Shown here: positions 88 to 21,211 of the stretch, in pieces
How the letters are laid out: each line of letters begins with the position of its first letter
Numbering within the stretch: the first letter of the stretch is position 1
Assembly: GCA_015069065.1 (NCBI GenBank)
Contig: SVJI01000002.1
Span: forward strand, 1 to 35,851
Direction of reading: 5' to 3'
Length of the DNA: 35,851 bases
From: Oscillospiraceae bacterium
GTDB lineage: Bacteria; Bacillota; Clostridia; UMGS1883
The notes under the pieces: generated by a model
What the model saw: only the letters and a program-made list of their open reading frames with translations
What the model was told of the DNA's origin: nothing
Databases searched by the model: none
Program-made: the position numbers and the translations under genes

Positions 88-504
88 TCAAAAGCCCTCC
101 TTTTCCAAAAGTTCTTTTAACTGTTTGAGTGAGCTTATCCGTCTTTTGAAAATGGTTTGCTGTATAGCTCCCAAATGCTCTCCGATTTCCTTATCGGTCA
201 TACCGACAAAGTACGAAAGCAAGATAACATCACGCTTTTGCTGTGGCAATGCTCTGATAGCATCTGCCAACATATTGCCCATAACAACAATCTCTTTATC
301 CAATACATTAAAAATATGCTGGTCTTCAAAATATTTGTCGCATACAGACAGCCTGATGATTTCATCACCCGTCAGCTCATTCAGGGATTTTTCTCTTTCT
401 CTTTGCTTTGCATTTTCTCTGTGAATATTCGTTGCTTCGTTTTTAAGCACCCGCAGACAGAATTTACAAAACTGTTTCGATATACGTATATCATTAGAAG
501 TCAT
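88..504 (-). CDS. Sigma-70 region-4-like small regulator (138 aa), typical of the ORF7-like regulator of Tn916/Tn1549-family ICEs and related mobilisable elements.
   Basis: The C-terminal LPQQKRDVILLSYFVGMTDKEIGEHLGAIQQTIFKRRISSLKQLKE is a sigma region 4.2 / LuxR-like HTH. I prefer the ATG at 504 (MTSNDIRISK) because AAAGGAGGTG lies 6 nt upstream. The track start at 591 has no RBS. Confidence 0.8.
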   Translation of the reverse strand: MTSNDIRISKQFCKFCLRVLKNEATNIHRENAKQREREKSLNELTGDEIIRLSVCDKYFEDQHIFNVLDKEIVVMGNMLADAIRALPQQKRDVILLSYFVGMTDKEIGEHLGAIQQTIFKRRISSLKQLKELLEKEGF

Positions 505-687: not shown

Positions 688-736
688 CACAGAAAAAAGG
701 CGATACTAACCCCTTGATTAAGGTTAATATCGCCTT
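688..736 (-). terminator. Rho-independent terminator closing the long minus-strand operon.
   Basis: On the minus strand the stem is AAGGCGATA-T-TAACC, a 10-nt loop, then GGTTA-G-TATCGCCTT. The arms are 736-728/726-722 paired with 711-707/705-697. A TTTTTTCTG tail follows. It is the first such structure downstream of the last operon gene. Confidence 0.65.
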
Positions 737-972: not shown

Positions 973-1818
973 TTACACTCCACTATATGCACTAAATCCA
1001 CCATCAACGGGGATTACTACACCATTTACAAAACTTGACGCATCCTTGTGCACAAGGAAGAGAAGTGTTCCGATAAGCTCTTCCGCTTTTCCAAATCTAT
1101 CCATGGGTGTTGCTCCGAGGATTTTTCCTGTTCGTGCTGTCGGCGTACCATCTTCATTAAAGAGTAGCTTTTCGTTCTGTTTTGTTACAAAGAATCCCGG
1201 TGCTATTGCATTGCAACGGATATTAGTTTTGGAGAAATGCACTGCAAGCCACTTTGTAAAGTTTGATATTGCAGCCTTTGCCCCGCTATATGCAGGTATC
1301 TTTGTAAGAGGGGTATATGCATTCATACTTGAAATATTGATAATGCTTGCATCTTCCTTTTCAAGCATATCCTTTGCAAATACCTGTGTTGGCAAAAGTG
1401 TGCCGAGGAAGTTAAGATTGAAGACAAATTCTACACCCGACTTATCAAGGTCGAAGAATGTCTTCATATTTCCCATTGCTTCAGGAGTAAAGTATTCATT
1501 ATCCGTTGTTGCTTTTGGGTTGTTACCGCCTGCACCGTTAATAAGAATATCACAAGCACCAAAATCTTTTACAATTTCGTCGTGTGCTTTTTCTATGCTC
1601 TCTTTATCAAGCACATTGCATTCATATCCTTTTGCAATGCCACCGTCTGCATTTATCTTTTCAGCATAGCCTTTTGCGGCATCAACATTTAAGTCAAGCA
1701 GTGCTACCTTTGCACCTGTCTTTGCAAGTGCCTCGGCAAACATTGAGCAAAGAACTCCGCCTGCACCTGTTACTACACATACTTTGCCTGTTAAATCTAT
1801 TTCAAATGGTAATTTCAT
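973..1818 (-). CDS. SDR-family oxidoreductase, probably SDR-type D-mannonate/fructuronate oxidoreductase (UxuB-like).
   Basis: 281 aa with a Rossmann TGAGGVLCS motif, NGAGG, and the catalytic YSGAK (YxxxK). It sits immediately downstream of uxuA. The function is inferred from that pairing and from general family resemblance. Confidence 0.85.
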   Translation of the reverse strand: MKLPFEIDLTGKVCVVTGAGGVLCSMFAEALAKTGAKVALLDLNVDAAKGYAEKINADGGIAKGYECNVLDKESIEKAHDEIVKDFGACDILINGAGGNNPKATTDNEYFTPEAMGNMKTFFDLDKSGVEFVFNLNFLGTLLPTQVFAKDMLEKEDASIINISSMNAYTPLTKIPAYSGAKAAISNFTKWLAVHFSKTNIRCNAIAPGFFVTKQNEKLLFNEDGTPTARTGKILGATPMDRFGKAEELIGTLLFLVHKDASSFVNGVVIPVDGGFSAYSGV

Positions 1819-1843
1819 AAAAATAATCCTTTCGTATTATTTT

Positions 1844-1943
1844 AAATTCGAAATTAGAAGTTCGAAGTTCGAAATGAATGAGAATTTTTGCTACAGCAAA
1901 AATTTTCCATCACTTCGCATTTCGCATTTTACATTTCGCATTT
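1844..1943. repeat. Intergenic heptad tandem repeats flanking a perfect 9-bp hairpin.
   Basis: Plus-strand left arm, 1847-1881: TTCGAAA TTAGAAG TTCGAAG TTCGAAA TGAATGA. Hairpin: AATTTTTGC (1883-1891), loop TACA, GCAAAAATT (1896-1904). Right arm, 1914-1948: TTCGCAT TTCGCAT TTTACAT TTCGCAT TTAACAC. The right arm abuts and overlaps the uxuA stop codon (1942-1944). Confidence 0.8.
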
Positions 1944-2982
1944 AACACTTGCTTTTCTCCAATGTTTCCCATATACCTGCCATATACATCGCACCCAGTG
2001 CTCTGTCATAAAGACCGTAACCAGGCTTTCCTGTTTCTCCCCATATCATTCTTCCGTGGTCAGGACGAAGATAGCCCTTGAAACCACAATCGTGATATGC
2101 TTTAAGGATTTCTACTACATCAAGAGAGCCACACTCGCTTAGATGTCCGCTTTCCTCAAATGAGCCATCGGGAAGTATCTTTATATTTCTTACGTGTGCA
2201 AAGTGTATTCTTCCCATTGCACCGTATTTTCTTACCATAGCGGTATAATCGTTAAATGTTGCACAACCTAATGAGCCGCTGCAAAGGGTAAGTCCGTGAT
2301 GTACATCATCATAAAGAGAAAGGAATCTGTCGATATTCTTCTCATTTGTGATAATTCTCGGAATACCGAAAATTGACCACGGCGGGTCATCGGGGTGTAT
2401 CGCCATATTTACGTCACACTCTACGGCAACGGGGATAATTTCCTTAATAAAGTATTCAAGGTTTGCCCATAAACCTTCTTCGCCGATTGCCTTGTATTTT
2501 TCTATAAGACCTGCCATTTCATCAGGTGTATATGATGCATCCCAACCGGGAAGCGTCATCTTTGTCGGATCCATTTTGTCTACATCTTCCTTATAGTAAA
2601 CAAGTGCGTTTGAGCCGTCAGCAAGAGGCTGGTCAAGGCGTGAACGTGTCCAGTCAAATACAGGCATAAAGTTATAGCATATACACTTTACACCTGCTTT
2701 TGCAAGTCTACGTATATTCTCCTTGTAATTATCTATGTAGAGCTGGTAATTGCCCTGACGAAGCTTTATATCCTCGTGCACGGGAACAGACTCAATAACT
2801 TCCATCTCAAGTCCTTTAGCGTTCACAAGGGCTTTCATTTTATCAATTTCTTCTTGCTCCCAAACCTGACCTACGGGAACACTGTATACAGCCGTTACAA
2901 CACCTGTCATACAGGGAATCTGTCTGATATGGTCAAGAGTGATACTATCACTTTCGCCATACCAACGAAATGTCATTTTCAT
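1942..2982 (-). CDS. uxuA: Mannonate dehydratase.
   Basis: 346 aa. MKMTFRWYGESD..., SVPVHEDIK, CYNFMPVFDWTRS and AIHPDDPP are collinear with the conserved blocks of E. coli UxuA (MEQTWRWYG, SVPIHEDIK, CYNFMPVLDWTRT, AVHPDDPP). Confidence 0.93.
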   Translation of the reverse strand: MKMTFRWYGESDSITLDHIRQIPCMTGVVTAVYSVPVGQVWEQEEIDKMKALVNAKGLEMEVIESVPVHEDIKLRQGNYQLYIDNYKENIRRLAKAGVKCICYNFMPVFDWTRSRLDQPLADGSNALVYYKEDVDKMDPTKMTLPGWDASYTPDEMAGLIEKYKAIGEEGLWANLEYFIKEIIPVAVECDVNMAIHPDDPPWSIFGIPRIITNEKNIDRFLSLYDDVHHGLTLCSGSLGCATFNDYTAMVRKYGAMGRIHFAHVRNIKILPDGSFEESGHLSECGSLDVVEILKAYHDCGFKGYLRPDHGRMIWGETGKPGYGLYDRALGAMYMAGIWETLEKSKC

Positions 2983-3031
2983 ATCATCACCACTCTCTTT
3001 TTCATAATAATAAAGTTATCTTTGAAATTGT

Positions 3032-4021
3032 TTAATTTGTTATTTCTACTTTTTCTGCTGAATCAAACGCACGTATTACAACACGAAGAGGGTGCAGTTC
3101 TTCATCCTGCGACAATGGCATATCATTTCCGTATAAAAGATGCTCTGTAAGAAGTTTAAAATAGTCAACGCAGTCAGAATTTTGTGTATCTATCTCTCCC
3201 TCATCTGCACTGTGGGTATAAAGATGTGTTCTTCTTCCCCCGTCTGTAATTTCAACCATACCTTCTGTACCGAAAATCCTGATGCTTTCATTTCCCCATT
3301 TTCCAAATCCTTTTGGATTCAGATAATTAACGCACGCTGAGGCTACGCCTCCGTTTGAAAGTGTCATTAACCATGAGGATGCTGTGTAAAGTCCCTCGTT
3401 TGGGTTAATATTTCCTAAATGAGTCTGACGCACGTTTACACTTTCAACTTCCAGATCTGTAATATGCTCCAAAAAACGTATTGCGTGTATTCCTGCCTGA
3501 CGTACAAGTCCGCCATCCGTTTCTTCATCCTGCGGTCTGTTATCAATATTCAAAGGATACGATTTTTGCACATACACTTGTATAACTTCTCCTATTTTCC
3601 CGCTCTTGACTAATTTTCTTACTGTCCAGTACGGTTCAACGAATACACTGTCTGCCATTTCGTGAAATTCACATCCGTTTTCTTTTGCGGCAGTTAAAAT
3701 TCTTTCTAAACCATCTTCACTAAAGGCTGCCGGTTTTTCTGCATAAACATGCTTTCCTTCTTTCAAGCACATAATAGCATGTTTTTCCTGTTGGCTACGT
3801 TTTGGAGAACAAAGGCTTATTAAATCTATTGATTTATCTTTAAGCATTTCTTCAAGTGAAGAATATAAAATTATATTGCTACAATGCTCTTTTATTTCAC
3901 TGAAAAATGAATCAGAAACTTCGCATAATGCTACAAGCTCTGCTTCTTCATTATTATACAGCTTATAATGTATCTGATGACCGTAGCTTCCGTATAGACC
4001 TACTCGAAGTTTTTTCTTCAT
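3032..4021 (-). CDS. Gfo/Idh/MocA-family NAD(P)-dependent oxidoreductase (329 aa).
   Basis: N-terminal Rossmann segment LRVGLYGSYGHQ and the family EKP motif (HVYAEKPAA). GGGGAG RBS 8 nt upstream. No signal peptide. Confidence 0.85.
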   Translation of the reverse strand: MKKKLRVGLYGSYGHQIHYKLYNNEEAELVALCEVSDSFFSEIKEHCSNIILYSSLEEMLKDKSIDLISLCSPKRSQQEKHAIMCLKEGKHVYAEKPAAFSEDGLERILTAAKENGCEFHEMADSVFVEPYWTVRKLVKSGKIGEVIQVYVQKSYPLNIDNRPQDEETDGGLVRQAGIHAIRFLEHITDLEVESVNVRQTHLGNINPNEGLYTASSWLMTLSNGGVASACVNYLNPKGFGKWGNESIRIFGTEGMVEITDGGRRTHLYTHSADEGEIDTQNSDCVDYFKLLTEHLLYGNDMPLSQDEELHPLRVVIRAFDSAEKVEITN

Positions 4022-4027
4022 ATCGTC

Positions 4028-5209
4028 TTACTCCCCTTGAAATTCATTTAAAGATAAATCTGTATCTTTATACATCTCTACCATGTGTTCAAACAAACCC
4101 TCTGCATATAAAAGATTTTCTTTTTCTTTTAAAAGCGCTTTTTTTACAGGCTTTATACTAAACTCTTTCTGAATTTTATTTATCATTTTTGTATGCATCG
4201 CCGCCGCATCAATTCCGCAAGGACCATCATCTGTCTTTCCGTCTATTATAGCATCTACTGCCATATGAAGCTTACGGCAATTATCTGCCATTGGGTCACC
4301 ATAAACAATTTTTTCGCCACTATGCATCAATGCAGTAATGTTACCATATTCAATATATTCTTTGGGCATTAGTAATTCAGCCTCATCACACTTTTGTGAT
4401 GAGTAATATACTGTTCCTTTTTCAAAACAATATTCAAAAACTGGTTCTATGGTTTTATTCACGGGGTGTGCTGCAATAAAAGTTGCAGTTTTTCCATCAA
4501 CCTTAAACTGTATTTTTGATACGTCAAAATTCTCAATGTCATTTGCCTTCAAAAGCTCGGCAGTAACATCGGTAGGCTCTGCCGCTTCTTGGTATTTTCC
4601 CATAACAAAAAGCATATTAAAAAGATAGTGTGCGGCAGAATTATTTGCAACGCTGTCATAAACCTTTTTTCCGTCTGCAGTACAAATCTTTCCTGCCCAG
4701 CCAACTCCTCTGCCAAAGTAATCACGGTCACGAGGTCTTAAAATGAGCGTTTTCATTTCCTTTAGCTCCCCGTATTTTCCGTCTGCAATATCTCTTTTAA
4801 GCTTTGTAATCGGTTCACTGTATGACCACTGGTACCCAATATATATGAATTTCCCAGACTGCTTCTGAGCTTCTTTAAGAATTTCAATATCCTTTTCATC
4901 AGAGCAAAGCGGTTTTTCACACAAAACATTTGAGCCGTTACCAAGTGCCGTTAAAATGTGTTGTGTATGCAAAAAAATAGGAGTTGATATCACTGCTAAA
5001 TCAGCTTTATTATTTTTATAAAAGCTCTCCATATCTAAATAAACAGGTATATTTCTGATTTTTAATTCACTTATAAGCGAACATCTTTCGGGATATGGAT
5101 CAACAACACCTGTCAAATTAATTCTAGAGTTTGTTTTTTCTAAAATCTCCCTGACAAAAGTGTTTCCGTAGCCACCTATTCCAACTAAAACGACATTTAC
5201 ACATTTCAT
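4028..5209 (-). CDS. Gfo/Idh/MocA-family oxidoreductase (393 aa) with an extended C-terminal domain.
   Basis: VVLVGIGGYGNTF Rossmann segment and VLCEKPL motif. Its ATG overlaps the nagA stop (ATGA, 5206-5209), which suggests translational coupling. Confidence 0.85.
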   Translation of the reverse strand: MKCVNVVLVGIGGYGNTFVREILEKTNSRINLTGVVDPYPERCSLISELKIRNIPVYLDMESFYKNNKADLAVISTPIFLHTQHILTALGNGSNVLCEKPLCSDEKDIEILKEAQKQSGKFIYIGYQWSYSEPITKLKRDIADGKYGELKEMKTLILRPRDRDYFGRGVGWAGKICTADGKKVYDSVANNSAAHYLFNMLFVMGKYQEAAEPTDVTAELLKANDIENFDVSKIQFKVDGKTATFIAAHPVNKTIEPVFEYCFEKGTVYYSSQKCDEAELLMPKEYIEYGNITALMHSGEKIVYGDPMADNCRKLHMAVDAIIDGKTDDGPCGIDAAAMHTKMINKIQKEFSIKPVKKALLKEKENLLYAEGLFEHMVEMYKDTDLSLNEFQGE

Positions 5210-6366
5210 GCCTTTTCCTCCTTTGCAACCAACACCTTTTTAATGTTTACATCATCATCAAAAATTACTATATCTGCATCATAGCCTATTTCCAGTTTTC
5301 CTTTTGTATGAAGCTTCATTATACGTGCGGGAACTTCTGTAATCATTTTAACGGCTGATTCAAGCGGTATGCCTGTCTTTTTAACACAAGTTCTGACTAA
5401 TACATCGGTCGTTGCAATACTTCCTGCAAAAGCACTTCTGTCAGCAAGCTTTGCAACACCGTCCTCAATTATGTAGGGCACATTTCCGTTTTCGCTTGTT
5501 TCATTCTCAATATTTGTCATACCGCCGTGACGGATTGCATCTGTGACTAAACACATATGCTCTTCACCCTTTTGTTTATACACCAGCTTTAATAACTCGG
5601 GTGGCAAATGGCATCCGTCAGCTATTGTTTCAACATCTATATCGTCATATAGATATGCTGTTTCAGTTACGCCTAAAATGCGAAACCCGCCTTTTCTTGT
5701 AATGGTAGATGTGCAGGAATAAAGATGTGTAATGAGCTTCATCCCGTTTTCATATGCACTCTTTATATCTGCATATTCCGCATCGGTATGCCCTGCTGAT
5801 GCAACGATACCCTTTTCATTGAGAAACCTCAAAAATTCATCTGCACCCTCAAGCTCGGGTGCATAGCTCCAACGTGCTATAACATCGCAGTATTCAGTAT
5901 AGAGTTTCTCATATTCTGCTTTATTTGGTGTGCGTATAAAGGACGGGTCCTGTGCACCGCTTTGCTTTGGTGAAAAATACGGGCCTTCAAGATGTGCACC
6001 GTAAATGTGGGGAATTACGTCTGCACTGTCCTTATACTCCTTTAATGCAGCAAGTGCCTTTGAGGTTTTTTCGTTATCATAGGCAGATATTGTGGGATAA
6101 ATTGTTGTTGTACCATGCTTTGCGTGGACATTTGCCGCTTCCTTTATTGCTTCAAAACTTCCATCAACAAATTCATATCCTGCTCCGCCGTGAACGTGTA
6201 TGTCAACAAACCCCGCTGACACATAGTTTCCCTCTGCATCAATTTCTTCGTCAAATGGAAGTTCCATTTCCGTTATATCAAGGATTTTTCCGTTCTGTAT
6301 ATAAAGGCTCTTATTAACAATTCCAGCAGGTGTAATCAGCTTGCCGTTTTTTATTTTAGTAATCAT
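5206..6366 (-). CDS. nagA: N-acetylglucosamine-6-phosphate deacetylase family.
   Basis: 386 aa. Motifs: GFVDIHVHGGAGYEF (metal-binding HxH plus GG), HLEGPYFSP...GAQ, AGHTDA, THLYS and VTDA, all NagA hallmarks. It has a 4-nt overlap with nagB. Confidence 0.9.
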   Translation of the reverse strand: MITKIKNGKLITPAGIVNKSLYIQNGKILDITEMELPFDEEIDAEGNYVSAGFVDIHVHGGAGYEFVDGSFEAIKEAANVHAKHGTTTIYPTISAYDNEKTSKALAALKEYKDSADVIPHIYGAHLEGPYFSPKQSGAQDPSFIRTPNKAEYEKLYTEYCDVIARWSYAPELEGADEFLRFLNEKGIVASAGHTDAEYADIKSAYENGMKLITHLYSCTSTITRKGGFRILGVTETAYLYDDIDVETIADGCHLPPELLKLVYKQKGEEHMCLVTDAIRHGGMTNIENETSENGNVPYIIEDGVAKLADRSAFAGSIATTDVLVRTCVKKTGIPLESAVKMITEVPARIMKLHTKGKLEIGYDADIVIFDDDVNIKKVLVAKEEKA

Positions 6367-7121
6367 AAAAGCTTTGCCCCGCTGTCTTTATCGCAGTACA
6401 TAATTGCATTATCATGCTTACGCATAATTGTTGCAGGTAACTCCTCGTTAATTTCATTATTAACCGTCTTATATACTGCATCTGCCTTTGTAGCTGCGGG
6501 TACTGTGCAGAAGAGGTAATCTGCGTTAAAGAGCGTAGGCACTGTAAGAGTCAGGGCATATTTCGGTACATCGTCAATTTTTGCAAAGCATCCGTCATTA
6601 ACCTGCTGCTGACGGCAAACCTCATCAAGCTCTACCCTCTTAATTACCTCTTTATCATTAAAATCAGCAACCCACGGATCATTAAATGCAATGTGACCAT
6701 TCTCACCTATTCCGAGGCATACAATATCAATGGGATTTTCTTTTATAAGCTTTGTGTAGCGTGCGCAGGTTTCCTCTGCAGTTTCTCCCTCTGCATAAAT
6801 ATAATTAACGCTCTTAAACGGAAGCTTACTGAATATTGCATTCTTTAAGAAATTACCGAAGCCCTGCGGTGCATCAGGAGAAAGTCCTATGTATTCATCC
6901 ATATGAAATGCGTTTACTCTGCCCCAGTCAATTCCTTCTGCCTTAATTAAAGCTGCAAGTGTTTCATTCTGAGAGGGTGCTGCCGCAAAAATCATATTTA
7001 CTTCTTCTTTTTCAGTAAGAAGCTTTCTGATACAATCTGCTGCATCACTGCCTGCTTTGTTTCCCATTTCCTCTCTTGTATCAAAAATCATTACCTTTAA
7101 CTTGTCTTTCTGTATTATCAT
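6363..7121 (-). CDS. nagB: Glucosamine-6-phosphate deaminase/isomerase family (NagB-like; 6-phosphogluconolactonase/GlcN6P isomerase fold).
   Basis: 252 aa with FHMDEYIGL and LGIGENGHIAFNDP motifs. It is adjacent to and coupled with nagA. It has FAAAPSQ where canonical NagB has ATGxTP, so the exact substrate is less certain. Confidence 0.8.
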   Translation of the reverse strand: MIIQKDKLKVMIFDTREEMGNKAGSDAADCIRKLLTEKEEVNMIFAAAPSQNETLAALIKAEGIDWGRVNAFHMDEYIGLSPDAPQGFGNFLKNAIFSKLPFKSVNYIYAEGETAEETCARYTKLIKENPIDIVCLGIGENGHIAFNDPWVADFNDKEVIKRVELDEVCRQQQVNDGCFAKIDDVPKYALTLTVPTLFNADYLFCTVPAATKADAVYKTVNNEINEELPATIMRKHDNAIMYCDKDSGAKLL

Positions 7122-7123
7122 AA

Positions 7124-7702
7124 TTAACCCTCTTCTATACTAAATTCATAAAGTCTGTTTATTCCCTCACACGCAGTAAAGCCCACGTGAAAGGTTTCGG
7201 GGATGTCTTCGTGTTCCACAATGCCCTTTACACCGTTCACATCAATTACAAAACGCTTTTCCTCTACCTTCAGCGTAATTTCGCAAATAGCACCATCTTC
7301 AATTTTAAAATGCTCTGCCAAAATTTTTGATGGTGCTACAGGTTTTTGCGTATTTTCAGGTGTGGGAACAATTCTCCATACATTAAAACCATCCTCATAT
7401 GCAACAACTTCAAAATGCAAACCATATCGTTTTATTTCTCCGTCTAAAAACATATCGTCAGTCAATGCAATAATGGGTGCACCATAAGAATCGAAGGAGC
7501 ATTTTAGATATATCGTTACACCCGTTTTATAACGTGCCTTTGAAATCATACTGATATATTCAAAAATTCCGTCATACTCAAAATTTCTTATATGGTCATC
7601 CTCCTCAATAAACTCTCCAAAGGTTTTACATATAGGAGAATAAACATATTCAAAATCATCCTTTTGCCACCCGTTCCTTTTAAAAACGTACTCTTTCTTC
7701 AT
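7124..7702 (-). CDS. Hypothetical cytoplasmic protein (192 aa), possibly a small concanavalin/LamG-like jelly roll (reminiscent of DUF1961/YesU-type proteins).
   Basis: Uninterrupted ORF packed 2 nt from nagB and 9 nt from the upstream gene. No signal peptide. The C-terminal HVGFTACEGINRLYEFSIE resembles the last strands of lectin-like domains. The fold call is a weak guess. Confidence 0.7.
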   Translation of the reverse strand: MKKEYVFKRNGWQKDDFEYVYSPICKTFGEFIEEDDHIRNFEYDGIFEYISMISKARYKTGVTIYLKCSFDSYGAPIIALTDDMFLDGEIKRYGLHFEVVAYEDGFNVWRIVPTPENTQKPVAPSKILAEHFKIEDGAICEITLKVEEKRFVIDVNGVKGIVEHEDIPETFHVGFTACEGINRLYEFSIEEG

Positions 7703-7711
7703 AAAACCACC

Positions 7712-9592
7712 TTATTCAAAATCATACCATTTATCGGGGATAAATCCATTATCATCACCCTCGACGGGAATCATTATTCCATATCCGCCGTGGCTTACAT
7801 AACTGTCAAAATTTCTCTGCATATAAAGAAGTTCTCCACGCTCGGGAATATCATAATGCTTTAAAGCCTTGTATCCGCTTTCATCGTCCTCGTAATTTTC
7901 CCTGCACTCGAGGTCAGAATATCGAAATGCCATACGCATAAGACGAACATTGTTACGTGCTGCTTCATTTTCCGCTTCATTAAGTGCTTTTTCAAAGCCT
8001 TGGTACATTCTTTCTTTATCAATATGCTCCATCAAATATATTCCTGCTCGCATAATTTCGCTCTGTCCATCAAGCACACTTTCTGCATAGCGAATATTTT
8101 TAGCGATGTATTTTCCGCCTTTTCCAAATATTCGGCAGAAAAGAGAAAGGTTATCATCAAGCGATTTTTTAGTGTCGTATGCCGTTCTTCCATATGTGTA
8201 GAAATTAAATATATTATTCCATAGGTTATATACCTCAAGTTGGGTCTCTGTACCGTCTATTCCCTTTTCAATAAATCGTCTGCACATTGCCTGCATTTCA
8301 TCTGCCATAGGGATATAGCGCTGTCTGCCGGGATATACGCCCATAAAATAATCGTAATAAGTAACATTGGCGCCTATAGCTTTCCAATTAAGAAGATTTT
8401 TCTCAAAAAATGTTCCTGCAAGGCACGTGCCGTCAGGTTTTCCTATTGTGCGAAGTCCTGAAATATGCCATGTAGCCTCTGTTACAGAGACATTCTTTTC
8501 AAGAGTGATATTTGTAGGTGGTTCCCAAAGGTCGGTGTATGACATCATATTAAGCTCTACATCGCTATGCGCTTTTTTAAGACGCTTTGCAATTTCATTT
8601 ATCATATGTGCATAGTTTTCGACCTTGGAAAATCCTTTACACTTTTCACAACAACACTGCGGTGCGGTGCCATCCTTGTTAAGAAGCGCAAAGCTCTTTA
8701 CCTGCGGATTTTGTGTAAACCACTCTATCAGGTTACTTGAAATCTCTTCAATCATTTCCTCATTTCTTGAACAAAGTACCATCTGTCCCCAGTGATTTAC
8801 CATTTCAAAACGAGTTCCATCCTCTGTCATTTTATAATATTCGGGATGTGTTTCGTAGTAATGCTCTGAAAAATACTTATTTCCTTTTTGAGGGAGAAGG
8901 GTGTCAATAGCATCGTGATGCCCTACCTTAAAGAGAATACCCCTTTTTATTGCAGCGTCGAGCATGCCGTTTCCTTTCAGATGCTCATAAACACTGTTCC
9001 AAGTGTAGATATAGTTATATCTGTTCTTTGAAAGCCAATCGAGGAATTTAAAATCAAGCTCATAATCTGCCCCAGTTCCGTGTGCAGAATACTGTGCAAC
9101 AGCGCATCTGTAAGGAATATCGGCACACTTCTTAGTATAGAAAATGTCCTTTATTTCAAATTCATCCTTTTTAGGAATATATTCGCCGCCGCTGACACCT
9201 TCTTTTATATATGCTGCAAGGGAGCATCCCAAAAATCTTTCTAAGAATTCATACACTGCATAGAGCGTGCCTCTTTCGCATTCATTTATATTTTTGGAGC
9301 TTCCCGCAAGAACAAGGCAGTTTTCATATGATTTTATGAATATGCCCTCGGGGCCCGGTACAAGGCTGTCAAATTCAATTTCGGATATATATTCCTTTGT
9401 AATTAAATTTCTTTCAGGTCCACCGATTAAAATACAATTCTCTGACAAAGTTTTTGTATCGGTACATATTGAAAGCTCTGCCCCGAAAATTATCTTTATG
9501 TATTTTTGTAATTCCTCTGCTGCAAATATTTCCCTTGATGTTGCGTTATTAGGTATTATAATTATTTCCTTGCTTTTGCTGTTTAAAATCAT
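7712..9592 (-). CDS. DUF4838-like protein (626 aa), putative glycoside hydrolase. I recall CAZy GH163 being founded on a DUF4838 protein, but this is unverified.
   Basis: GGGAGG RBS 7 nt upstream of the ATG at 9592. The N-terminal IIIIPNNATSREIFAAEELQKYIKIIFGAEL...ILIGG pattern is typical of the zincin-like N-domain of GH20/GH67/DUF4838 proteins. Cys cluster PQCCCEKCKG. No signal peptide. The CDS is solid and the family call is moderate. Confidence 0.85.
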   Translation of the reverse strand: MILNSKSKEIIIIPNNATSREIFAAEELQKYIKIIFGAELSICTDTKTLSENCILIGGPERNLITKEYISEIEFDSLVPGPEGIFIKSYENCLVLAGSSKNINECERGTLYAVYEFLERFLGCSLAAYIKEGVSGGEYIPKKDEFEIKDIFYTKKCADIPYRCAVAQYSAHGTGADYELDFKFLDWLSKNRYNYIYTWNSVYEHLKGNGMLDAAIKRGILFKVGHHDAIDTLLPQKGNKYFSEHYYETHPEYYKMTEDGTRFEMVNHWGQMVLCSRNEEMIEEISSNLIEWFTQNPQVKSFALLNKDGTAPQCCCEKCKGFSKVENYAHMINEIAKRLKKAHSDVELNMMSYTDLWEPPTNITLEKNVSVTEATWHISGLRTIGKPDGTCLAGTFFEKNLLNWKAIGANVTYYDYFMGVYPGRQRYIPMADEMQAMCRRFIEKGIDGTETQLEVYNLWNNIFNFYTYGRTAYDTKKSLDDNLSLFCRIFGKGGKYIAKNIRYAESVLDGQSEIMRAGIYLMEHIDKERMYQGFEKALNEAENEAARNNVRLMRMAFRYSDLECRENYEDDESGYKALKHYDIPERGELLYMQRNFDSYVSHGGYGIMIPVEGDDNGFIPDKWYDFE

Positions 9593-9666
9593 AGTTCTGC
9601 CTCCCAGAGAACAACTTATTTTCTCTAACAGTATTAATTGAGTTCATTCTTCACAAATTACCAAAA

Positions 9667-10554
9667 TTATATTTCATCTTTTAATTTAAACAAACGAATT
9701 GCGTTTTCTCTGCATATTTTACGGTAATTTTCTTCACTGATACAACCTTTTTCCAAGGAGGCATCAAGCCAATCTGAAAGATATGTTTCCTGATGTGCAC
9801 GGCATATATCCGTTCCGAACATCAGTCTATCGGAAAATTCTTCAATAAAACGGTATGCAAAATCACTGTCTCGTGACATTGCGTTATAACCGCTTCCTGC
9901 AGAAAGGTCGCAGTAAAGGTTGGGGTAATGGCGCATAAGTTCAACCACTCTTCCCGCATTCACTTTACCTGTGACATAGTCGCCACGGTTTTCCTCGGTA
10001 ACATTGTCACCGATCTCGTTCCAGAAGCACTGCGAATGGCCCATAATTGTTAGGTTAGGATACTTTTTCAACATTTTTTCAAGACGTGGCAAACCCAAAT
10101 CGTCAATAATTCCGTATTCCTCTCCTTTACCGCATGCAAAATGAATAGTCACGGGCATATCACACTGGGCACAGTGATAGAACAGATTATCCATAAGGGG
10201 GGCATCCGCATATATATTTGCAGTCAATTCTCCTACCCCTATTGCACCACGGCTCTTGTAATCAAGCAAAAGCTCCGAAAAATCAGTGGCAGGTGAATTC
10301 TGCCCCATTCTGGGGTCAATGTTACAAAACCAATAAAAAGTATCAGAATACTTGTTCGCAAGATACTCCATTTCTTCATTCGTCTGAATGCAGTAATGGG
10401 CTTCCGGACTGATAAGCGGTAGCAAAAATCCTTTATCTATACCAAGCTCAGTATAGCTTTCTTTGATTTCCTCCGGTTGCACAAGAATACATCCCGAATG
10501 CAACTTTGCACCATTCCACATACTTGAATGAATATGTACATCAATTTTTTTCAT
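9667..10554 (-). CDS. Amidohydrolase-2 (TIM-barrel metal-dependent hydrolase) family protein (295 aa), a possible sugar lactonase or decarboxylase-type enzyme.
   Basis: MKKIDVHIHS (HxH metal ligands at the first strand), later GHSQ and FGTD motifs. I prefer the ATG at 10554 (AAAGAGGG 6 nt upstream) over the track start at 10656. Confidence 0.8.
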   Translation of the reverse strand: MKKIDVHIHSSMWNGAKLHSGCILVQPEEIKESYTELGIDKGFLLPLISPEAHYCIQTNEEMEYLANKYSDTFYWFCNIDPRMGQNSPATDFSELLLDYKSRGAIGVGELTANIYADAPLMDNLFYHCAQCDMPVTIHFACGKGEEYGIIDDLGLPRLEKMLKKYPNLTIMGHSQCFWNEIGDNVTEENRGDYVTGKVNAGRVVELMRHYPNLYCDLSAGSGYNAMSRDSDFAYRFIEEFSDRLMFGTDICRAHQETYLSDWLDASLEKGCISEENYRKICRENAIRLFKLKDEI

Positions 10555-10665
10555 GCGTTTGCCCTCTTTCTGCTGTAATTTCATTCTCTGCTTTTTTGCA
10601 AAAGCTTTATAACACCCGTACGTTCTTATACCTGTCTGTATAACAACATAATTCACATAAATTCA

Positions 10666-11859
10666 TTATTCCTTTACCCATTTTCCATTTGTGAAATCGG
10701 GAATTTCAACCATTTGATTACCGAGTATAATTGACTTTTCAGAAAGGGGTGTAATGCACATCCAGCTTACGGTATCATATACATCAATAGGCATAGGCTT
10801 GTTTTCGATAACGCACTCAACAAAATCCTTAACCACAAGGTAATCCATACCGCCATGTCCCTTTTGAACACCCTGCTTCAGATATTCTTTCCATACGGGA
10901 TGGTCATATTGCTCTGCATACTTTTCTCCATTGTCCCAGTTTGGTTTCCAATTAAACTCATCTAATTCTTCACCATCAAAAACAAAAGAATTATTTCTTT
11001 CATCATAGAAAGCCTTCGTTCCATGCACGCAAAGATTACGGGTATAATATCTTGGAAGTGTAGTATCAAGAGTAAGTGTGATTGTTTCCCCGTGGGCACA
11101 CTTGATTATAGTTGTAATAACGTCGCCCTGCTCGAAAACCGTATTAACCAGAGTTTCATCATCAGGGTAGTTTTTCATAATATATTCGTGAAGCCCCGCA
11201 CTCTTAGATGCAACGGAAATCAGTGAAACCATTCTGTTACCCTTATTTATACCAAGCATCTGCGCAATGGGACCAAGCTCATGTGTAGGATAATTTTCGC
11301 AGTTTCTGTTTTTATAGTTACGGAATCTGTAGTGCCTGTTCTTTATTCCGTTTGAAACTTCGTTTCTTAAATCGTGGCAATATGCACCGTCACAGTGGAC
11401 TATTGTGCCAAAAAGCCCCTGCTCAATCATATTAAGCAGCATCATTTCACGTCTGCCGTAGCAACAGTTTTCAAGCATCATGATAGGAGTTTTTGTTTCC
11501 TCGTATGTTTTAACAAGCTCCCAACACTGCTCTATAGAGTAGGCACCGCCCACCTCAAGGCCAACACACTTTCCCTTCTTCATAGCATAAACTGCAACGG
11601 GAACGTGCATTTCCCATGCGGCAAAAATCATAATTGCCTCTACATCATTTGAATCTATAACTTCTTTATAATCAGCTGTATTGAGTGAGGGTCTGTAGCC
11701 GCATTTTTCATTTATGTGGTCAGATGCTCGCTGCACTCTGTCATCATACACATCGCAAAGCGCAGTAATTTCAATATTATCCAGTTCTACCAGAACATTT
11801 TCCAAAACGTCATAACCACGTTTTCCTAATCCTACAATACCGATTTTTAACTTTTTCAT
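10666..11859 (-). CDS. Gfo/Idh/MocA oxidoreductase, GH109-like (NAD-dependent glycosidase-like), 397 aa.
   Basis: KIGIVGLGKRG Rossmann segment. The central MMLENCCYGRREMMLLNMIEQGLFGTIVHCDGAYCHDLR block resembles, from memory, the GH109 alpha-N-acetylgalactosaminidase core. ATG at 11859 with GGAG 8 nt upstream. No signal peptide. Confidence 0.8.
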   Translation of the reverse strand: MKKLKIGIVGLGKRGYDVLENVLVELDNIEITALCDVYDDRVQRASDHINEKCGYRPSLNTADYKEVIDSNDVEAIMIFAAWEMHVPVAVYAMKKGKCVGLEVGGAYSIEQCWELVKTYEETKTPIMMLENCCYGRREMMLLNMIEQGLFGTIVHCDGAYCHDLRNEVSNGIKNRHYRFRNYKNRNCENYPTHELGPIAQMLGINKGNRMVSLISVASKSAGLHEYIMKNYPDDETLVNTVFEQGDVITTIIKCAHGETITLTLDTTLPRYYTRNLCVHGTKAFYDERNNSFVFDGEELDEFNWKPNWDNGEKYAEQYDHPVWKEYLKQGVQKGHGGMDYLVVKDFVECVIENKPMPIDVYDTVSWMCITPLSEKSIILGNQMVEIPDFTNGKWVKE

Positions 11860-11893
11860 ATATTTATCTCCTTGCATTCACACGATTAAAATC

Positions 11894-12844
11894 TTACCAC
11901 AAGCTTGTATCGCTAAGCTTTTTACTTATTATATTAGTCGCTACCAAAAACATAAGATTTATTACCGAGTTAAACATATTAACTGCGGTGGAAAAGCTCC
12001 AGCTTTGTTCAAGCAGACCTTTTCTGTAGACATATGTAGATATAACATCTGCTGTATCCATTACAACGTCATTGTAAAGGAGAATTATCTTCTCATAACC
12101 TACATTTAATATTCCGCCCATTCGCATAATCAGCATTATGATAATTGTAGGCAAAATTCCGGGAAGTGTTACGTGCCAAAGCTGCTTTAGCTTTCCTGCA
12201 CCATCGATTGAAGCTGCTTCATACAAAGACGGATTTACGCCTGTAAGTGCGGCAAGATAAATAATAGAATTCCATCCTATTTCCTGCCATATACCTGAAC
12301 CTACATATATAGGAACAAAGAACGATGGATTTAAAAGCAGATTTTCCTTCGGCGCTCCAAAAAGCGACAACAAGTTTGTAATTACACCCGTATCCATAGA
12401 AAACGATTTTACCATACCGCAAACAACAACCAGTGAAATAAAGTGCGGCATATATGAAATATTCTGAACAACCTTTGAAAAGCCCTGTGATTTTAGTTCA
12501 TTCATCAGAAGTGCTAAAATAATCGCTGCCGGAAACTCCACAACAAGCATTGTAAGGCTGATTGTTATGGTATTGCTCAAGAGTGAGAAAAACGAGGGCG
12601 CTGAAAAGAAATTTACAAAATGCTTAAATCCAACCCACGGACTTCCCAAAACGCCAAGTCGGGGTGTATAATCCTTAAATGCAATTAGTGCACCATACAT
12701 TGGTCCATAATGGAATATAGCGTAATAAATCAGCATCGGAAGTATAATCAGATATAAAGCTTTGTTTTTGATAAAATCTTTTTTTACCATAGAAAGCCAG
12801 CTGACCTTGTTTTTATTGATTAGATTTTTCGTACTTTTTTCCAA
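11894..12844 (-). CDS. Sugar ABC transporter permease (LplB/YteP type).
   Basis: 316 aa, multi-pass membrane protein. N-terminal LYLIILPMLIYYAIFHYGPMYG and an EAA-like loop (YEAASIDGAGKLKQLWHVTLP). The track start is a TTG at 12844 with GGAGTG 6 nt upstream. An internal ATG (MVKKDF) is an alternative start. Confidence 0.88.
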   Translation of the reverse strand: MEKSTKNLINKNKVSWLSMVKKDFIKNKALYLIILPMLIYYAIFHYGPMYGALIAFKDYTPRLGVLGSPWVGFKHFVNFFSAPSFFSLLSNTITISLTMLVVEFPAAIILALLMNELKSQGFSKVVQNISYMPHFISLVVVCGMVKSFSMDTGVITNLLSLFGAPKENLLLNPSFFVPIYVGSGIWQEIGWNSIIYLAALTGVNPSLYEAASIDGAGKLKQLWHVTLPGILPTIIIMLIMRMGGILNVGYEKIILLYNDVVMDTADVISTYVYRKGLLEQSWSFSTAVNMFNSVINLMFLVATNIISKKLSDTSLW

Positions 12845-12849
12845 TTATA

Positions 12850-13731
12850 TCACTCCTTTACTGCGCCAATCATAACACCCTTGGTAAAGAATTTCTGTAC
12901 AAAGGGGTATACAATCAAAATCGGAACCGTTGCAACCACAATAGTTGCATATTTAATAGTTTCACTGAGTGCATACTGGTCAGTTGCCGTCGGGTCAGAC
13001 ATTGCACCCACATCATTTTGTATAAGTATCTCTCTGAGTATCAGCTGCAATGGATAGAGTGCTCTGTCCTTCAGATAAATACTTGCGTTGAACCAGGAAT
13101 TCCATCTGTCAACTGTGTAGTAAAGCAGTATAACTGCCAAAATAGACTTTGAAAGCGGCACAACAACCTGCGCCATTACACGAAAATGTCCTGCTCCCTC
13201 TAAAAGGGCGCTTTCAACAAGACTTTCGGGGACCTGCGAAAACGAGGTTTTTAAAACTATCAGATTATATGTACTGACAGCAAGCGGCAAAATAACTGCC
13301 AGAAAACTGTTATTAAGCCCAAGTGTCCTTGAAATCAATAAGTAGCTGGGGATAAGTCCGCCATTAAAGAACATTGTAATGGTAACAAGCTTCATTATGA
13401 GCTTATTCCAATATACATCCTTTCTTGAAAGCGTATATGCACCCATCGTTGTAATAATCATATTAACTGCCACGCCGCCTACAACTATAATCAGGGTATT
13501 TATATAGCCCTGCATAATCATAGGATTTTTAAATATTCCGATATAGGCATCTGTAGTAAAGCCAATCGGTGCAAAAAGTGCTTTGGAATGACCTAAAAGA
13601 AGGTCGCCGTTACTAAATGAGGCACAAATTACATACCAGAACGGATAAATCATAATAAAGCATAATAAAAGCATAAAGCAAATATTAAATACGTTGAAAA
13701 TCCGCCACGATAAAGACTCTTTAATTTTCAT
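12850..13731 (-). CDS. Carbohydrate ABC transporter permease (LplC/YtcP type).
   Basis: 293 aa, six predicted TM segments, EAA loop (ESALLEGAGHFRVMAQVVVPL). GGGAGGAG RBS upstream of the ATG at 13731. Confidence 0.9.
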   Translation of the reverse strand: MKIKESLSWRIFNVFNICFMLLLCFIMIYPFWYVICASFSNGDLLLGHSKALFAPIGFTTDAYIGIFKNPMIMQGYINTLIIVVGGVAVNMIITTMGAYTLSRKDVYWNKLIMKLVTITMFFNGGLIPSYLLISRTLGLNNSFLAVILPLAVSTYNLIVLKTSFSQVPESLVESALLEGAGHFRVMAQVVVPLSKSILAVILLYYTVDRWNSWFNASIYLKDRALYPLQLILREILIQNDVGAMSDPTATDQYALSETIKYATIVVATVPILIVYPFVQKFFTKGVMIGAVKE

Positions 13732-13833
13732 CTAACTCTCCTCCCTGAGGTATAAACAATCAAAATCTACGGTGTCGGGCACAAATATATCAGCGCCCTG
13801 CCTTACCACAAGGCGCCGACATACCTGCTCTAG

Positions 13834-15411
13834 TTATCTCTTCATATATCTTTCGTAAGCTGACTGCTGAATTTCAACAGCACGCTTTATATTAAGCTTT
13901 TCAATTTGCTTAATAAATGCATCGTAATTTTCAAAGCTTTCCACACCCATAATAAATTTGGTAATCATCTGGTTAACATACTTATTAACCTCATTCATTA
14001 TAGAAGCATATTCGGATGATTCGTCCGTACTGGGTGTGACATTGGGTATACGGTGCTTCATAGATTCATCATATCCCTTTACCCACTCATCAAGTGCGGC
14101 CTTCTGCTGAGGAAGCTGATAATACTGATTAAGGTATTCCTCGCTTACTACGAAGGAGCCGCCGCTTCCTGCCTTAACATTCATTGCGAGCATCTGCGAC
14201 ATTGAAAGTCCCTCAGTATTCTTAGTAATTTTTTCTGTATAAACAGGCTTTCCGTCAACCATTGTGTAGGTATCGCCTTCAACACCGAAGTTTGAGAAAA
14301 GCTGTCCTTCCTCTGTATAAGCATAGTCAAGAACCTTTGCAGCAAGCTGGGGATACTCGCTCTGTGCAGAAATAGCAGAAACAGAGGACAGTCCCACCGG
14401 ATATGAAACAGGAATATATGCATTCATTTTTCCGCTTTCCTTTGCGGGGTATCTGACGCCTGCCAGTTCAAACTTCTCATCCTTTTGTACACCTGATACC
14501 ATAAACTGTCCTATCTGACGACCACCACTGAGGAAGGAAGCACCTGTTTCACCGTTTAAGAGCTGACTTCCAAGCATTTTATCATCAATAGCTACAATAT
14601 TTTTATCAAGTAGGCCTTTCTTATACCATCTGCTCAGTGTTTCGAGTGCCTCCTTATATTCAGGCTCAATCGGGCCGAATTTAACCTTACCGTTATCTAT
14701 ATACATTTCAGGAACTGCTTCAAGCAGTGTAAACATATAATAAGATCCGGTTTCATAGTTGAAAGAAAGTGGTGCTGCTGCTCCTTTTTTCTCCTTAAAT
14801 GCTGTCAGCATATTTTCCCAATCCTCAACTGTTTCAGGCATTTTAAGACCTAATTCCTCAATCCAATCCTTTCTTATTGTAGGACCTGCTGTTGACACAA
14901 GCTTGGGCGAGGACTGAATAAGAGGAAAGCCGTAGAGCTGACCCTCATCAGTTGTTATCTGTCTTTTATAGGCTTCGTTTCCCTCAAGTATAGCGCTCAG
15001 TGCAGGCATATATTCCTTATATTCGTTAAGAGGAATGATAACACCGTCATTTATTGCTTTTGTGGGGCCACCTGCATACAGGCTGCTCCAGTTTACTTCC
15101 ATAATATCTGCATATTCACCCGATGCAATCATAAGGTTAAACGCCTCTGCAAGCTGACCTGATGCAGGCTGAATATATTCGATATTAACGCCCGTTCTTT
15201 TTGTGAATTCCTTTGCAAAATTTGTTTCTCCGTAATTTGAAACCATTGTTGTAAGGCTTGCGGGGGGATTACGGAAATATGTCAGTGTAACATCTGTCTC
15301 AATAGGATATGTATCTATGTTTTCTACAGTGCCGCTGCTTTCCTGCTTGCCTCCTGTGCAGGCGGTAAAAAGCAGACACACACATAATAAAAGCATAACA
15401 ATTCTTTTCAT
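13834..15411 (-). CDS. Extracellular solute-binding lipoprotein of a CUT1-type sugar ABC transporter (LplA/YtcQ type, 525 aa).
   Basis: Signal peptide ending in the lipobox LLFTAC. Size and position upstream of two permeases fit the family. AAAGGAGAAGG RBS upstream of the ATG at 15411. Confidence 0.9.
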   Translation of the reverse strand: MKRIVMLLLCVCLLFTACTGGKQESSGTVENIDTYPIETDVTLTYFRNPPASLTTMVSNYGETNFAKEFTKRTGVNIEYIQPASGQLAEAFNLMIASGEYADIMEVNWSSLYAGGPTKAINDGVIIPLNEYKEYMPALSAILEGNEAYKRQITTDEGQLYGFPLIQSSPKLVSTAGPTIRKDWIEELGLKMPETVEDWENMLTAFKEKKGAAAPLSFNYETGSYYMFTLLEAVPEMYIDNGKVKFGPIEPEYKEALETLSRWYKKGLLDKNIVAIDDKMLGSQLLNGETGASFLSGGRQIGQFMVSGVQKDEKFELAGVRYPAKESGKMNAYIPVSYPVGLSSVSAISAQSEYPQLAAKVLDYAYTEEGQLFSNFGVEGDTYTMVDGKPVYTEKITKNTEGLSMSQMLAMNVKAGSGGSFVVSEEYLNQYYQLPQQKAALDEWVKGYDESMKHRIPNVTPSTDESSEYASIMNEVNKYVNQMITKFIMGVESFENYDAFIKQIEKLNIKRAVEIQQSAYERYMKR

Positions 15412-18484: not shown

Positions 18485-18531
18485 TCTTATTCCTCCTCAA
18501 ATTTTAATTTATATATACTTTTAAATTAAAT

Positions 18532-21195: not shown

Positions 21196-21211
21196 ATTCA
21201 TCCTCCCTTTC

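Follow-up and report, generated by a model that had tools for sequence, protein, structure and literature searches.

The stretch of DNA analysed here (35,851 nucleotides of an Oscillospiraceae bacterium, positions 1 to 35,851 of contig SVJI01000002.1 in assembly GCA_015069065.1; hereafter the window) consists almost wholly of one minus-strand gene train, which runs from position 32941 to 973 with short gaps and overlaps. This train is a glycan-degradation operon of about 32 kb and 19 genes, and its distal part is a ten-gene cytoplasmic block in which NagB- and NagA-like proteins, UxuA and UxuB are interleaved with three oxidoreductases of the Gfo/Idh/MocA type. According to Pfam and NCBIfam, the gene order is an AraC-type regulator, four surface proteins, an SGNH esterase, a substrate-binding protein (SBP), two permeases and the ten-gene block. 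All gene families are known, and no pathway described so far corresponds to the whole block. The favoured reading, which we put at about an even chance, is that of a mobile Gram-positive polysaccharide-utilisation operon of an uncultured gut or rumen member of the Clostridia, serving conventional amino-sugar and uronate trunks, whereby the host supplies the missing steps.

The scheme that we infer for the substrate, for the roles of four accessory proteins and for the dependence on the host would run as follows. Surface beta-helix enzymes and the SGNH esterase would fragment and de-O-acetylate an acidic polymer containing N-acetylhexosamine (HexNAc) and uronic acid, and the resulting oligosaccharides would be taken up by an ATP-binding cassette (ABC) system lacking its ATPase. 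In the cytoplasm, a GH109 protein would cut N-acetylgalactosamine (GalNAc)-type linkages by NAD-dependent oxidation, elimination and addition, and beta-HexNAc linkages would be hydrolysed by a DUF4838 enzyme in a substrate-assisted manner. The amino sugar would then be processed by the NagA-like deacetylase followed by the NagB-like deaminase, and the uronic acid would enter as fructuronate via UxuB of the short-chain dehydrogenase/reductase (SDR) type, with UxuA leading to 2-keto-3-deoxygluconate (KDG). The least certain step is the one in which the remaining pair of Gfo-type oxidoreductases, an Amidohydro_2 protein and a lectin-fold protein would fit the residues of the glycan to both trunks; the accessory chemistry might include epimerisation via a keto intermediate, keto reduction, and hydrolysis of a lactone or an amide. 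The host chromosome would provide KDG kinase, 2-keto-3-deoxy-6-phosphogluconate (KDPG) aldolase and the ABC ATPase and, on the favoured reading, also uronate isomerase and a HexNAc kinase.

The gene identities, the operon structure, the mobile-element context and the conserved synteny were observed directly. Indeed, the ten-gene block is a real, conserved gene arrangement: the queried protein was present on 21 metagenome contigs (JGI and ENA), whereby the contigs with the block were all 27-42 kb long, and of the six places shown, five had the block intact from GH109 to the SDR, whereas in the remaining one the contig stops within uxuA. On the regulator side of the operon lies a plus-strand mobilisation module (33361..34988) made up of a MobC/NikA-like protein (33361-33714) and a MobA/VirD2 relaxase (33675-34988; PF03432, 1.1e-37). 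On the opposite side, an intrinsic-terminator-like hairpin (697..736, minus strand), with a 17-bp stem and then a T-run, follows the SDR gene and closes the operon. It is succeeded by the minus-strand gene of a sigma-70 region-4 protein of a mobile element (88..504) and, on longer contigs, by the genes of an HTH_16 protein and of a large serine recombinase, beyond which a host-like dihydroorotase gene was found (mobile-element flanks: 1-970 and 32942-35851 of the window; L001 14400-20058). The cargo is thus flanked by a relaxase with its accessory protein and by a recombinase, the arrangement by which integrative mobilisable or conjugative elements are recognised. Since relaxase and MobC stand on one side and the sigma70_r4, HTH_16 and serine recombinase genes on the other, the operon is regarded as the cargo of such an element. 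A BLAST search with the end of the element against plasmids gave no match. The layout is that of Gram-positive polysaccharide-utilisation loci on Tn916/Tn5397-like ICE/IME elements, in which a mobilisation module likewise lies on one side of the cargo and a sigma-like/HTH module with a large serine recombinase on the other; here, however, 19 genes for glycan degradation are carried and not a resistance gene. If the conventional reading is true, a whole glycan-foraging operon of 19 genes moves between gut Clostridia and plugs into the central pathways of its hosts, which bears on the spread of glycan niches in gut and rumen communities. A possible transposase fragment was also seen at 35607-35831 on the minus strand.

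A preliminary description of the cytoplasmic block had called it metabolically incomplete, and both the gene positions that it gave and the absences that it listed hold. The lack of uxaC, kdgK, eda, any sugar kinase and any ABC ATPase in the window was upheld by Pfam and tblastn: neither a kinase nor an ABC ATPase was found by Pfam on all 20 large open reading frames (ORFs) of the window, and tblastn with E. coli UxaC, UxaA, KdgK, Eda and NagK and with an ABC ATPase gave a best window match of only E = 0.03. The same tblastn with UxaC, KdgK and Eda found no match in L001, L015, L017, L080, L081 and L102. The incompleteness is therefore real, and it is also common at the level of operons. The E. 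coli genes uxaC, kdgK and eda each occupy a locus of their own, with uxuAB near none of them, so that gaps at the operon level are normal. Because the operon is cargo, reliance on housekeeping genes of the host is a natural explanation of the gaps. The same transcription unit does not continue beyond the window into uxaC, a kinase and canonical glycoside hydrolases, as had been considered beforehand; the terminator is followed by the mobile-element genes.

In the uronate branch, UxuA, D-mannonate dehydratase (1942..2982, minus strand), was recognised by PF03786 with an E value of 7.8e-143 and by TIGR00695 with 378.1 bits against a cut-off of 199.55. The SDR next to it (973..1818, minus strand) scored 453.7 bits against a cut-off of 281 with NF006132, the model of the SDR-type UxuB (D-mannonate oxidoreductase, that is, fructuronate reductase), and remained below the cut-off of the KduD model (136.6 versus 338.85). 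An SDR-type UxuB has been shown experimentally to reduce fructuronate in H. influenzae (PMC5788505). Judged by these family matches, UxuB and UxuA are predicted to form the normal module from fructuronate via mannonate to KDG. The likeness to the Ashwell hexuronate pathway (UxaC, UxuB, UxuA, KdgK, Eda) lies in the adjacent UxuA and SDR-type UxuB, both above their cut-offs; in contrast to that pathway, neither the window nor five related loci contain UxaC, KdgK or Eda, and UxuA and UxuB stand in operons with NagB and NagA instead. A polysaccharide lyase route via an unsaturated uronate was considered and rejected: GH88, KduI and KduD are absent, the SDR fails the KduD models, and the matches of the beta-helix proteins are weak and PL6/PL9-like.

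The NAD-dependent cleavage in the scheme would be due to a protein of 403 aa (10666..11877, minus strand; the second methionine, at 11859, is the likely start), predicted to be a GH109-family glycosidase of the alpha-N-acetylgalactosaminidase type. Its C-terminal part matched PF21252 (Glyco_hydro_109_C) over positions 1-185 of 187 with an E value of 9.4e-57 and 191.8 bits (cut-off 27), and its Rossmann domain matched PF01408 (E 2.8e-9). Moreover, residues 7-401 of 403 aligned with 2IXA at E 7e-100, and the full length with 6T2B at E 4.4e-71. On this evidence, the protein is a genuine GH109 relative, from which NAD-dependent cleavage would be expected. With the characterised GH109 alpha-N-acetylgalactosaminidases (Elizabethkingia meningoseptica NagA, 2IXA; Akkermansia, 6T2B) it shares homology over the full length and the architecture of a Rossmann domain with the GH109 C-terminal domain. 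As opposed to them, it has no signal peptide and is therefore considered cytoplasmic, predicted to act on imported oligosaccharides, and it is only one of the three Gfo/Idh/MocA proteins of the block.

Hydrolytic cleavage is also encoded, given the presence in the block of a DUF4838 protein (7712..9592, minus strand), which the preliminary description had missed together with the lectin-fold protein and the nature of the SDR as a D-mannonate oxidoreductase. The PF16126 match (97.1 bits versus 26.6, residues 136-498) points to a GH20-like catalytic domain as in GH163 and GH185; no signal peptide was found, and a sequence search of the PDB gave no match. DUF4838 is the catalytic domain of GH163 (endo-beta-GlcNAcase) and GH185, which are retaining and substrate-assisted enzymes (PMC10570127). 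The GH185 founder Sp_0475 is a cytoplasmic 6-sulfo-beta-GlcNAcase of the exo type specific for GlcNAc (N-acetylglucosamine) with an anionic C6, with the catalytic residues D309, Q174 and H227 and the sulfate-binding R633 (PMC10570127). The window protein shares the Pfam domain with BT1035, the endo-beta-GlcNAcase of GH163, and with Sp_0475 and, like the GH185 cluster, has about 620-630 aa, no signal peptide and a gene directly upstream of amino-sugar catabolic genes. However, as opposed to the GH185 system, the window locus has neither a sulfatase nor a phosphotransferase system (PTS), and a specificity for C6-anionic HexNAc is no more than a possibility. The module of DUF4838, NagB and NagA occurs again in L013/L014 (80% identity), a locus that also has a GH88 gene. 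A 6-sulfo-GlcNAc substrate for the DUF4838, NagA- and NagB-like proteins was set aside: GH185 and a NagA that tolerates sulfate would agree with it, but it leaves the coupling to UxuAB unexplained and there is no sulfatase.

The amino-sugar branch departs from the canonical pattern. The ATGA overlaps reported earlier at nagB/nagA and at nagA/oxidoreductase are both present in the sequence, so the NagA-like gene is translationally coupled to both of its neighbours. The NagB-like deaminase/isomerase (6363..7121, minus strand; PF01182) matched B. subtilis NagB at 2.7e-27, and its TIGR00502 score of 135.3 bits is below the cut-off of 236.9. It belongs to a subfamily with an invariant IFAAAPSQN where the canonical phosphate loop reads GLPTGGTP. 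In E. coli numbering, the loop T41-G-G-T44 is replaced by F-A-A-A and Arg172 aligns with a glutamine, with an invariant arginine three residues upstream, and Lys208 is kept. The MDEY and GHIAFNDP motifs are conserved; Asp72 and His143 are unchanged, with aspartate as a conservative replacement of Glu148. These three residues are those which we take to be catalytic in E. coli NagB. A further invariant motif of the subfamily, CRxQQVNDGCF, contains two conserved cysteines and is absent from E. coli NagB.

The NagA-like deacetylase (5206..6366, minus strand), which represents the partner subfamily and carries the sequence HLYSCT, passed TIGR00221 narrowly (253.2 bits versus 225.65) and scored 179.9 versus 483 with a second model, NF008371; it matched 2VHL at 2.9e-43, with homology to solved NagA structures over the full length. 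All of the 55-plus partner NagA proteins have TH[LF][YF]S.. in place of HL[FY]NAM, whereby the asparagine is changed to serine. In the NagA of M. smegmatis (MSNagA), the 6-phosphate is contacted by the asparagine of this HL[FY]NAM motif, by the next backbone amide and by a basic pair of the other subunit (PMC6016474), and an Arg-Lys pair of the window protein aligns with Arg219/Arg220 of MSNagA. The NagB- and NagA-like proteins form a distinct, widespread and co-evolving pair of subfamilies with altered 6-phosphate-contact motifs. With the canonical enzymes of E. coli and B. subtilis, the window pair shares the fold, the catalytic residues, adjacency and translational coupling; it differs from them in the changed phosphate-contact positions, the NagB score below cut-off, the lack of a kinase or PTS nearby and the usual partners, which are Gfo-type proteins and TIM barrels.

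These partners emerged from a scan with one genome per species, which gave about 600 matches and 80 loci, with neighbours counted over the 67 loci that had a clustered NagB ORF. The subfamily itself is large (more than 8000 database matches were scored) and is found in Clostridia and Bacteroidales. Beside the NagB-like gene, the NagA-like gene was present in 55 of the 67 loci, a small AraC regulator and a Gfo/Idh/MocA protein of about 357 aa in 48 each, a shorter Gfo-like protein of about 291 aa in 35, and a xylose-isomerase-like TIM barrel, confirmed by Pfam, in 30. A typical cassette, found at about 48 of the 67 loci, has a divergent AraC gene, then Gfo, Gfo-like, TIM barrel, NagB and NagA, and contains no kinase (L016-L095, e.g. 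L040, L046, L057, L063, L073). At several Bacteroidales loci, a transporter of the major facilitator superfamily (MFS) takes the place of the TIM barrel just upstream of NagA/NagB. Considering these counts, the interleaving of NagB/NagA with Gfo/Idh/MocA genes is a conserved trait of the subfamily. The two extra oxidoreductases of the window are about 25% identical to the common cassette partners and are not their orthologues. No recurrent kinase family was found among the 103 other operon members scanned at the 67 loci, and E. coli NagK and UxaC had no match in any of the 80 loci. No description of a Gfo/TIM/NagB/NagA cassette was found in literature searches. Overall, there is a large NagA/NagB subfamily with conserved redox and KDG-pathway partners, and it may be misannotated.

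Several of these observations weigh against the favoured reading of a conventional, host-completed operon. Both the NagA-like and the NagB-like proteins carry family-wide changes at the positions that contact the 6-phosphate, and the NagB-like protein is below the curated NagB cut-off. A kinase, UxaC, KdgK and Eda are all absent next to the subfamily in 79 of the 80 loci. Four other genomes have UxuA and UxuB in translational coupling with NagB and NagA, which looks more like one linear pathway than like two separate trunks. Moreover, the supply of the missing enzymes by the host is an assumption, and the roles given to four of the ten block proteins are guesses.

The linear pathway that would account for this coupling is an amino-uronic acid route, the main rival of the favoured reading, though rather unlikely. 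The NagA- and NagB-like enzymes would act on a free 2-acetamido-2-deoxy-hexuronate, of the N-acetylglucosaminuronic acid (GlcNAcA) or N-acetylmannosaminuronic acid (ManNAcA) type, rather than on GlcNAc-6-phosphate. After release by the DUF4838 or the GH109 protein, the residue would be deacetylated and converted to D-fructuronate by a NagB-type deaminating isomerisation, and UxuB and UxuA would take it on to KDG without a kinase or UxaC. The C6 carboxylate would stand in for the 6-phosphate as the anionic handle, and the four-gene operon would represent four consecutive steps. Indeed, tight operons consisting only of NagB, NagA, UxuA and an UxuB-type SDR were found at four loci (L015 10001-13810; L017 9992-13832; L080 and L081, 8033-11910), with 4-nt overlaps at several junctions and in both gene orders, reversed in two of them; UxaC, KdgK, Eda or a kinase was not found within 10 kb of any. 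In 4 of 80 loci, UxuA lies within 10 kb of the NagB/NagA family, whereas chance would give about 0.7% (p ~0.002). In a metagenome-assembled genome of Alistipes sp. (L070 5760-20718), an operon combines a KDG-kinase-like PfkB protein, KDPG aldolase, an MFS transporter, NagA, NagB, a Gfo-like protein, Oxidoreduct_C, ApbE and two Gfo proteins, with UxuA and an UxuB-type SDR convergent about 8 kb downstream and no UxaC.

The lack of a recurrent kinase and the invariant motif changes, in which NagA has exchanged the asparagine for serine and kept two basic residues and in NagB AAAP stands for the TGGT loop, also fit the amino-uronic acid route, which would moreover account for the MFS transporter and the linkage to KdgK and Eda. 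The same holds for the specificity of canonical NagA, which requires an anion at C6 only, accepting the 6-sulfate and refusing free GlcNAc (PMC6016474), and for that of the characterised cytoplasmic DUF4838 enzyme, already described, for C6-anionic GlcNAc. On the other hand, about 60 of the 67 loci have no UxuA or UxuB nearby, and the usual partners, namely two Gfo-type proteins, a TIM barrel and AraC, would go unexplained. The NagA-like protein is still above the curated NagA cut-off, an operon of NagBA with UxuAB would equally be expected of a pathway for a disaccharide of glucuronic acid and GlcNAc with shared enzymes elsewhere, and literature searches found no precedent for the catabolism of amino-uronic acids.

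The choice between the conventional operon and the amino-uronic acid route matters beyond this locus. N-acetyl-hexosaminuronic acids occur in the capsules of bacteria, in teichuronic acids and in O-antigens. If the route exists, the mobile operon would be a scavenger of capsule or cell-wall polymers, with GH109 and DUF4838 releasing the residues in the cytoplasm. The NagA/NagB subfamily is annotated everywhere as GlcNAc-6-phosphate enzymes in spite of the changed motifs, the absence of a recurrent kinase and the conserved partners. Should its substrate be an amino-uronic acid, or some other amino sugar that is C6-anionic or unphosphorylated, the amino-sugar annotations of gut metagenomes would be systematically wrong for it. 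A different substrate of the subfamily would also make the catabolic fate of bacterial acidic amino-polysaccharides testable with four purified enzymes.

The preliminary description had proposed that imported oligosaccharides are opened by oxidation and elimination rather than by Koshland hydrolases. In its broad form, in which the Gfo pair, possibly together with the lectin-fold protein, would also cleave glycosides via a 3-keto intermediate and the opening would be mainly by redox chemistry, this proposal has a low probability. What survives of it is the GH109 protein: one of the three Gfo/Idh/MocA proteins is, by sequence, a genuine NAD-dependent glycosidase. The other two, of 393 aa (4028..5209, minus strand; PF01408, with the Rossmann domain alone recognised) and 329 aa (3032..4021, minus strand; PF01408 and PF22725), are far below the family cut-offs. 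Pfam did not find PF21252 in either, and GH109 structures are absent from both of their PDB match lists. With NF058561 and NF058563, the models of glycoside and disaccharide 3-dehydrogenases, all three Gfo/Idh/MocA proteins stayed at 20-30 bits, where the cut-offs are 750 and 650, respectively. With the wider set of 3-dehydrogenase, levoglucosan dehydrogenase, IolG and xylose dehydrogenase models, the 393- and 329-aa proteins reached 20-68 bits against cut-offs of 350-750.

The best PDB match of the 393-aa protein, the C-glycoside oxidase DgpA (4.4e-11), would favour the broad redox reading, as would its match to the glucuronide 3-dehydrogenase 8TDI. Its best PDB matches (DgpA, NanOx/YjhC, GFOR), however, lie mainly in the N-terminal Rossmann domain, and those to DgpA are weak; the DgpA alignment spans residues 5-160 in the 393-aa protein and residues 4-182 in the one of 329 aa, the best match of which is the uncharacterised 3IP3 (4e-20). 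In related genomes, the NagB/NagA subfamily shares operons with Gfo proteins and a xylose-isomerase-like TIM barrel, two kinds of enzyme that are combined in known 3-keto-glycoside pathways (PMC10628242). The window resembles the 3-keto- and C-glycoside systems (DgpA-DgpBC, OGE, BT2157-2159; PMC10628242) in having Gfo/Idh/MocA proteins in a glycan-catabolic operon; unlike them, it has no TIM-barrel eliminase, the sole AP_endonuc_2 signal being a sub-threshold one inside UxuA (25.8 versus 31.1 bits), and it encodes the conventional DUF4838 hydrolase in addition.

Homologues of the 393-aa protein are numerous in Clostridia, and some of 81-91% identity lie on other contigs. At L009, the gene of one homologue again precedes that of a counterpart of the 329-aa protein (30% identical to that of the window), so that the two form a pair. 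An attempt to assign a function to the pair by gene context failed, as the neighbourhoods of the 393-aa homologues disagree: PALP and an SDR in one case, an epimerase, DHDPS (dihydrodipicolinate synthase) and M20 in another, and a solitary gene in a third. The first two of these contexts are not connected with glycosides and thus speak against the broad redox reading.

The remaining candidate for 3-keto chemistry is the lectin-fold protein (7124..7702, minus strand), a cytoplasmic protein of 192 aa whose predicted model (pLDDT 97.3) is a ConA-like or galectin-like beta-sandwich. It had no sequence match in Pfam, NCBIfam or the PDB. The folds nearest to the model are CBM66 4B1M (TM score 0.65), GH16 enzymes and YesU 1OQ1. 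Its family comprises 226 cluster representatives, with Glu98, Gly105, Gly174 and Glu179 invariant (alignment A3). The CBM66 fold and the two invariant glutamates are consistent with a part in redox cleavage. CBM66 presumably falls in the Pfam family named for a 3-keto-disaccharide hydrolase; however, Pfam does not assign the 192-aa protein to PF06439. The gene context of one homologue was uninformative as to its function.

In another alternative, the missing UxaC would be replaced locally. The Amidohydro_2 protein could isomerise glucuronate to fructuronate in place of UxaC, or the Gfo pair could carry out a redox-neutral isomerisation via L-gulonate; such a substitute is quite unlikely. UxaC is a member of the amidohydrolase superfamily. 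The window protein (9667..10554, minus strand; PF04909, 50.9 bits) is a TIM-barrel metal enzyme, a candidate lactonase, deacylase or uronate isomerase substitute. Its ORF with a GTG start extends over 9667-10656, and the internal ATG at 10554 ('MKKIDVHIH') agrees with the homologues. The substitute is favoured by a stand-alone operon at L102 (10001-12783), made up of Amidohydro_2 (61% identical), UxuA (90%) and an UxuB-type SDR (68%), and by L100, where an Amidohydro_2 homologue is one gene, a TIM-barrel gene, away from GH28. Moreover, the Gfo pair lies directly upstream of uxuA, and the production of fructuronate by a dehydrogenase is documented in the L-gulonate route of H. influenzae (PMC5788505).

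Several observations speak against the substitute. A PDB sequence search with the Amidohydro_2 protein was empty, and the family profile reached only the uncharacterised 3IRS (3.6e-4). The nearest folds to its model (pLDDT 95) have TM scores of 0.57-0.65 at 14-18% identity: 0.62-0.64 (14% identity) for 4I6K, 4DLF and 4DO7, 0.57-0.62 for decarboxylases and 0.65 for 3IRS. As modelled, the protein thus resembles LigI-like proteins and fuconolactonase about as much as decarboxylases and is no nearer to sugar lactonases than to the latter, and no uronate isomerase was among the 50 best structural matches. The invariant set of HxH, Glu, His, His and Asp probably resembles a hydrolase metal site. The homologues at 59-70% identity are more often found with aminotransferases, deacylases and Gfo proteins: at L183 (5519-10344), L187 (7001-11622), L019 and L032, they are accompanied by varying sets of aminotransferases (DegT or class I/II), deacylases (M20, M55, ceramidase-like) and Gfo proteins, and at L019 and L032 the Amidohydro_2 homologue also adjoins NagB and NagA. 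No link to UxuA was seen in 80 more distant metagenome loci of the wider Amidohydro_2 family, and the four UxuAB-NagBA operons have neither Amidohydro_2 nor the Gfo pair. Overall, the uronate isomerase role that L102 had suggested was weakened by the fold matches, by the missing UxuA link and by the company of the close homologues, and literature searches found no precedent for alternative uronate isomerases. As a separate observation, the contexts at L183, L019, L032 and L187 seem to resemble diamino-sugar biosynthesis in reverse (WbpB/WbpE/WbpD-like steps).

The weakest alternative, also put forward in the preliminary description, has a hexose such as mannose oxidised by a Gfo/Idh/MocA protein to a lactone, which Amidohydro_2 as a lactonase would open to mannonate for UxuA; it is very improbable. 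The Gfo/Idh/MocA group includes aldose 1-dehydrogenases, weak matches to xylose 1-dehydrogenase and aldose-aldose oxidoreductase were seen, the Amidohydro_2 fold is comparable with that of the fuconolactonase 4DLF (TM score 0.64), and the L102 operon is compatible with it. However, no characterised aldose dehydrogenase or lactonase was matched specifically, the route would yield less ATP than glycolysis in an anaerobe, no feature of the operon points to a mannan substrate, and the UxuB-type SDR would be left without a role. With an SDR of that type, mannonate is expected to arise from fructuronate, and the oxidation of mannose is not needed.

The part of the operon upstream of the block would serve the surface degradation and import proposed in the conventional reading. 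The genes at 15479..32941 (minus strand) encode the AraC-type regulator, four proteins with beta-helix, immunoglobulin-like (Ig) or LamG domains anchored by S-layer homology (SLH) domains, and the SGNH (GDSL) esterase of 1001 aa. The surface enzymes (15479-30572) had weak matches only, to the N-termini of PL9/PL6-type lyases, to the lacto-N-biosidase of GH136 and to the pectin acetylesterase PaeY, and in the 889-aa SLH protein a recognisable catalytic domain was not found. These matches do not suffice to name the target polymer. The ABC importer without ATPase follows at 11894..15411 (minus strand), with the SBP at 13834-15411 and the permeases at 12850-13731 and 11894-12844. The regulator at the head of the operon (30761-32941, minus strand) has 726 aa and a hydrophobic segment at the N-terminus, which suggests a membrane-bound one-component sensor; the related cassettes have a cytoplasmic AraC protein of 276 aa instead.

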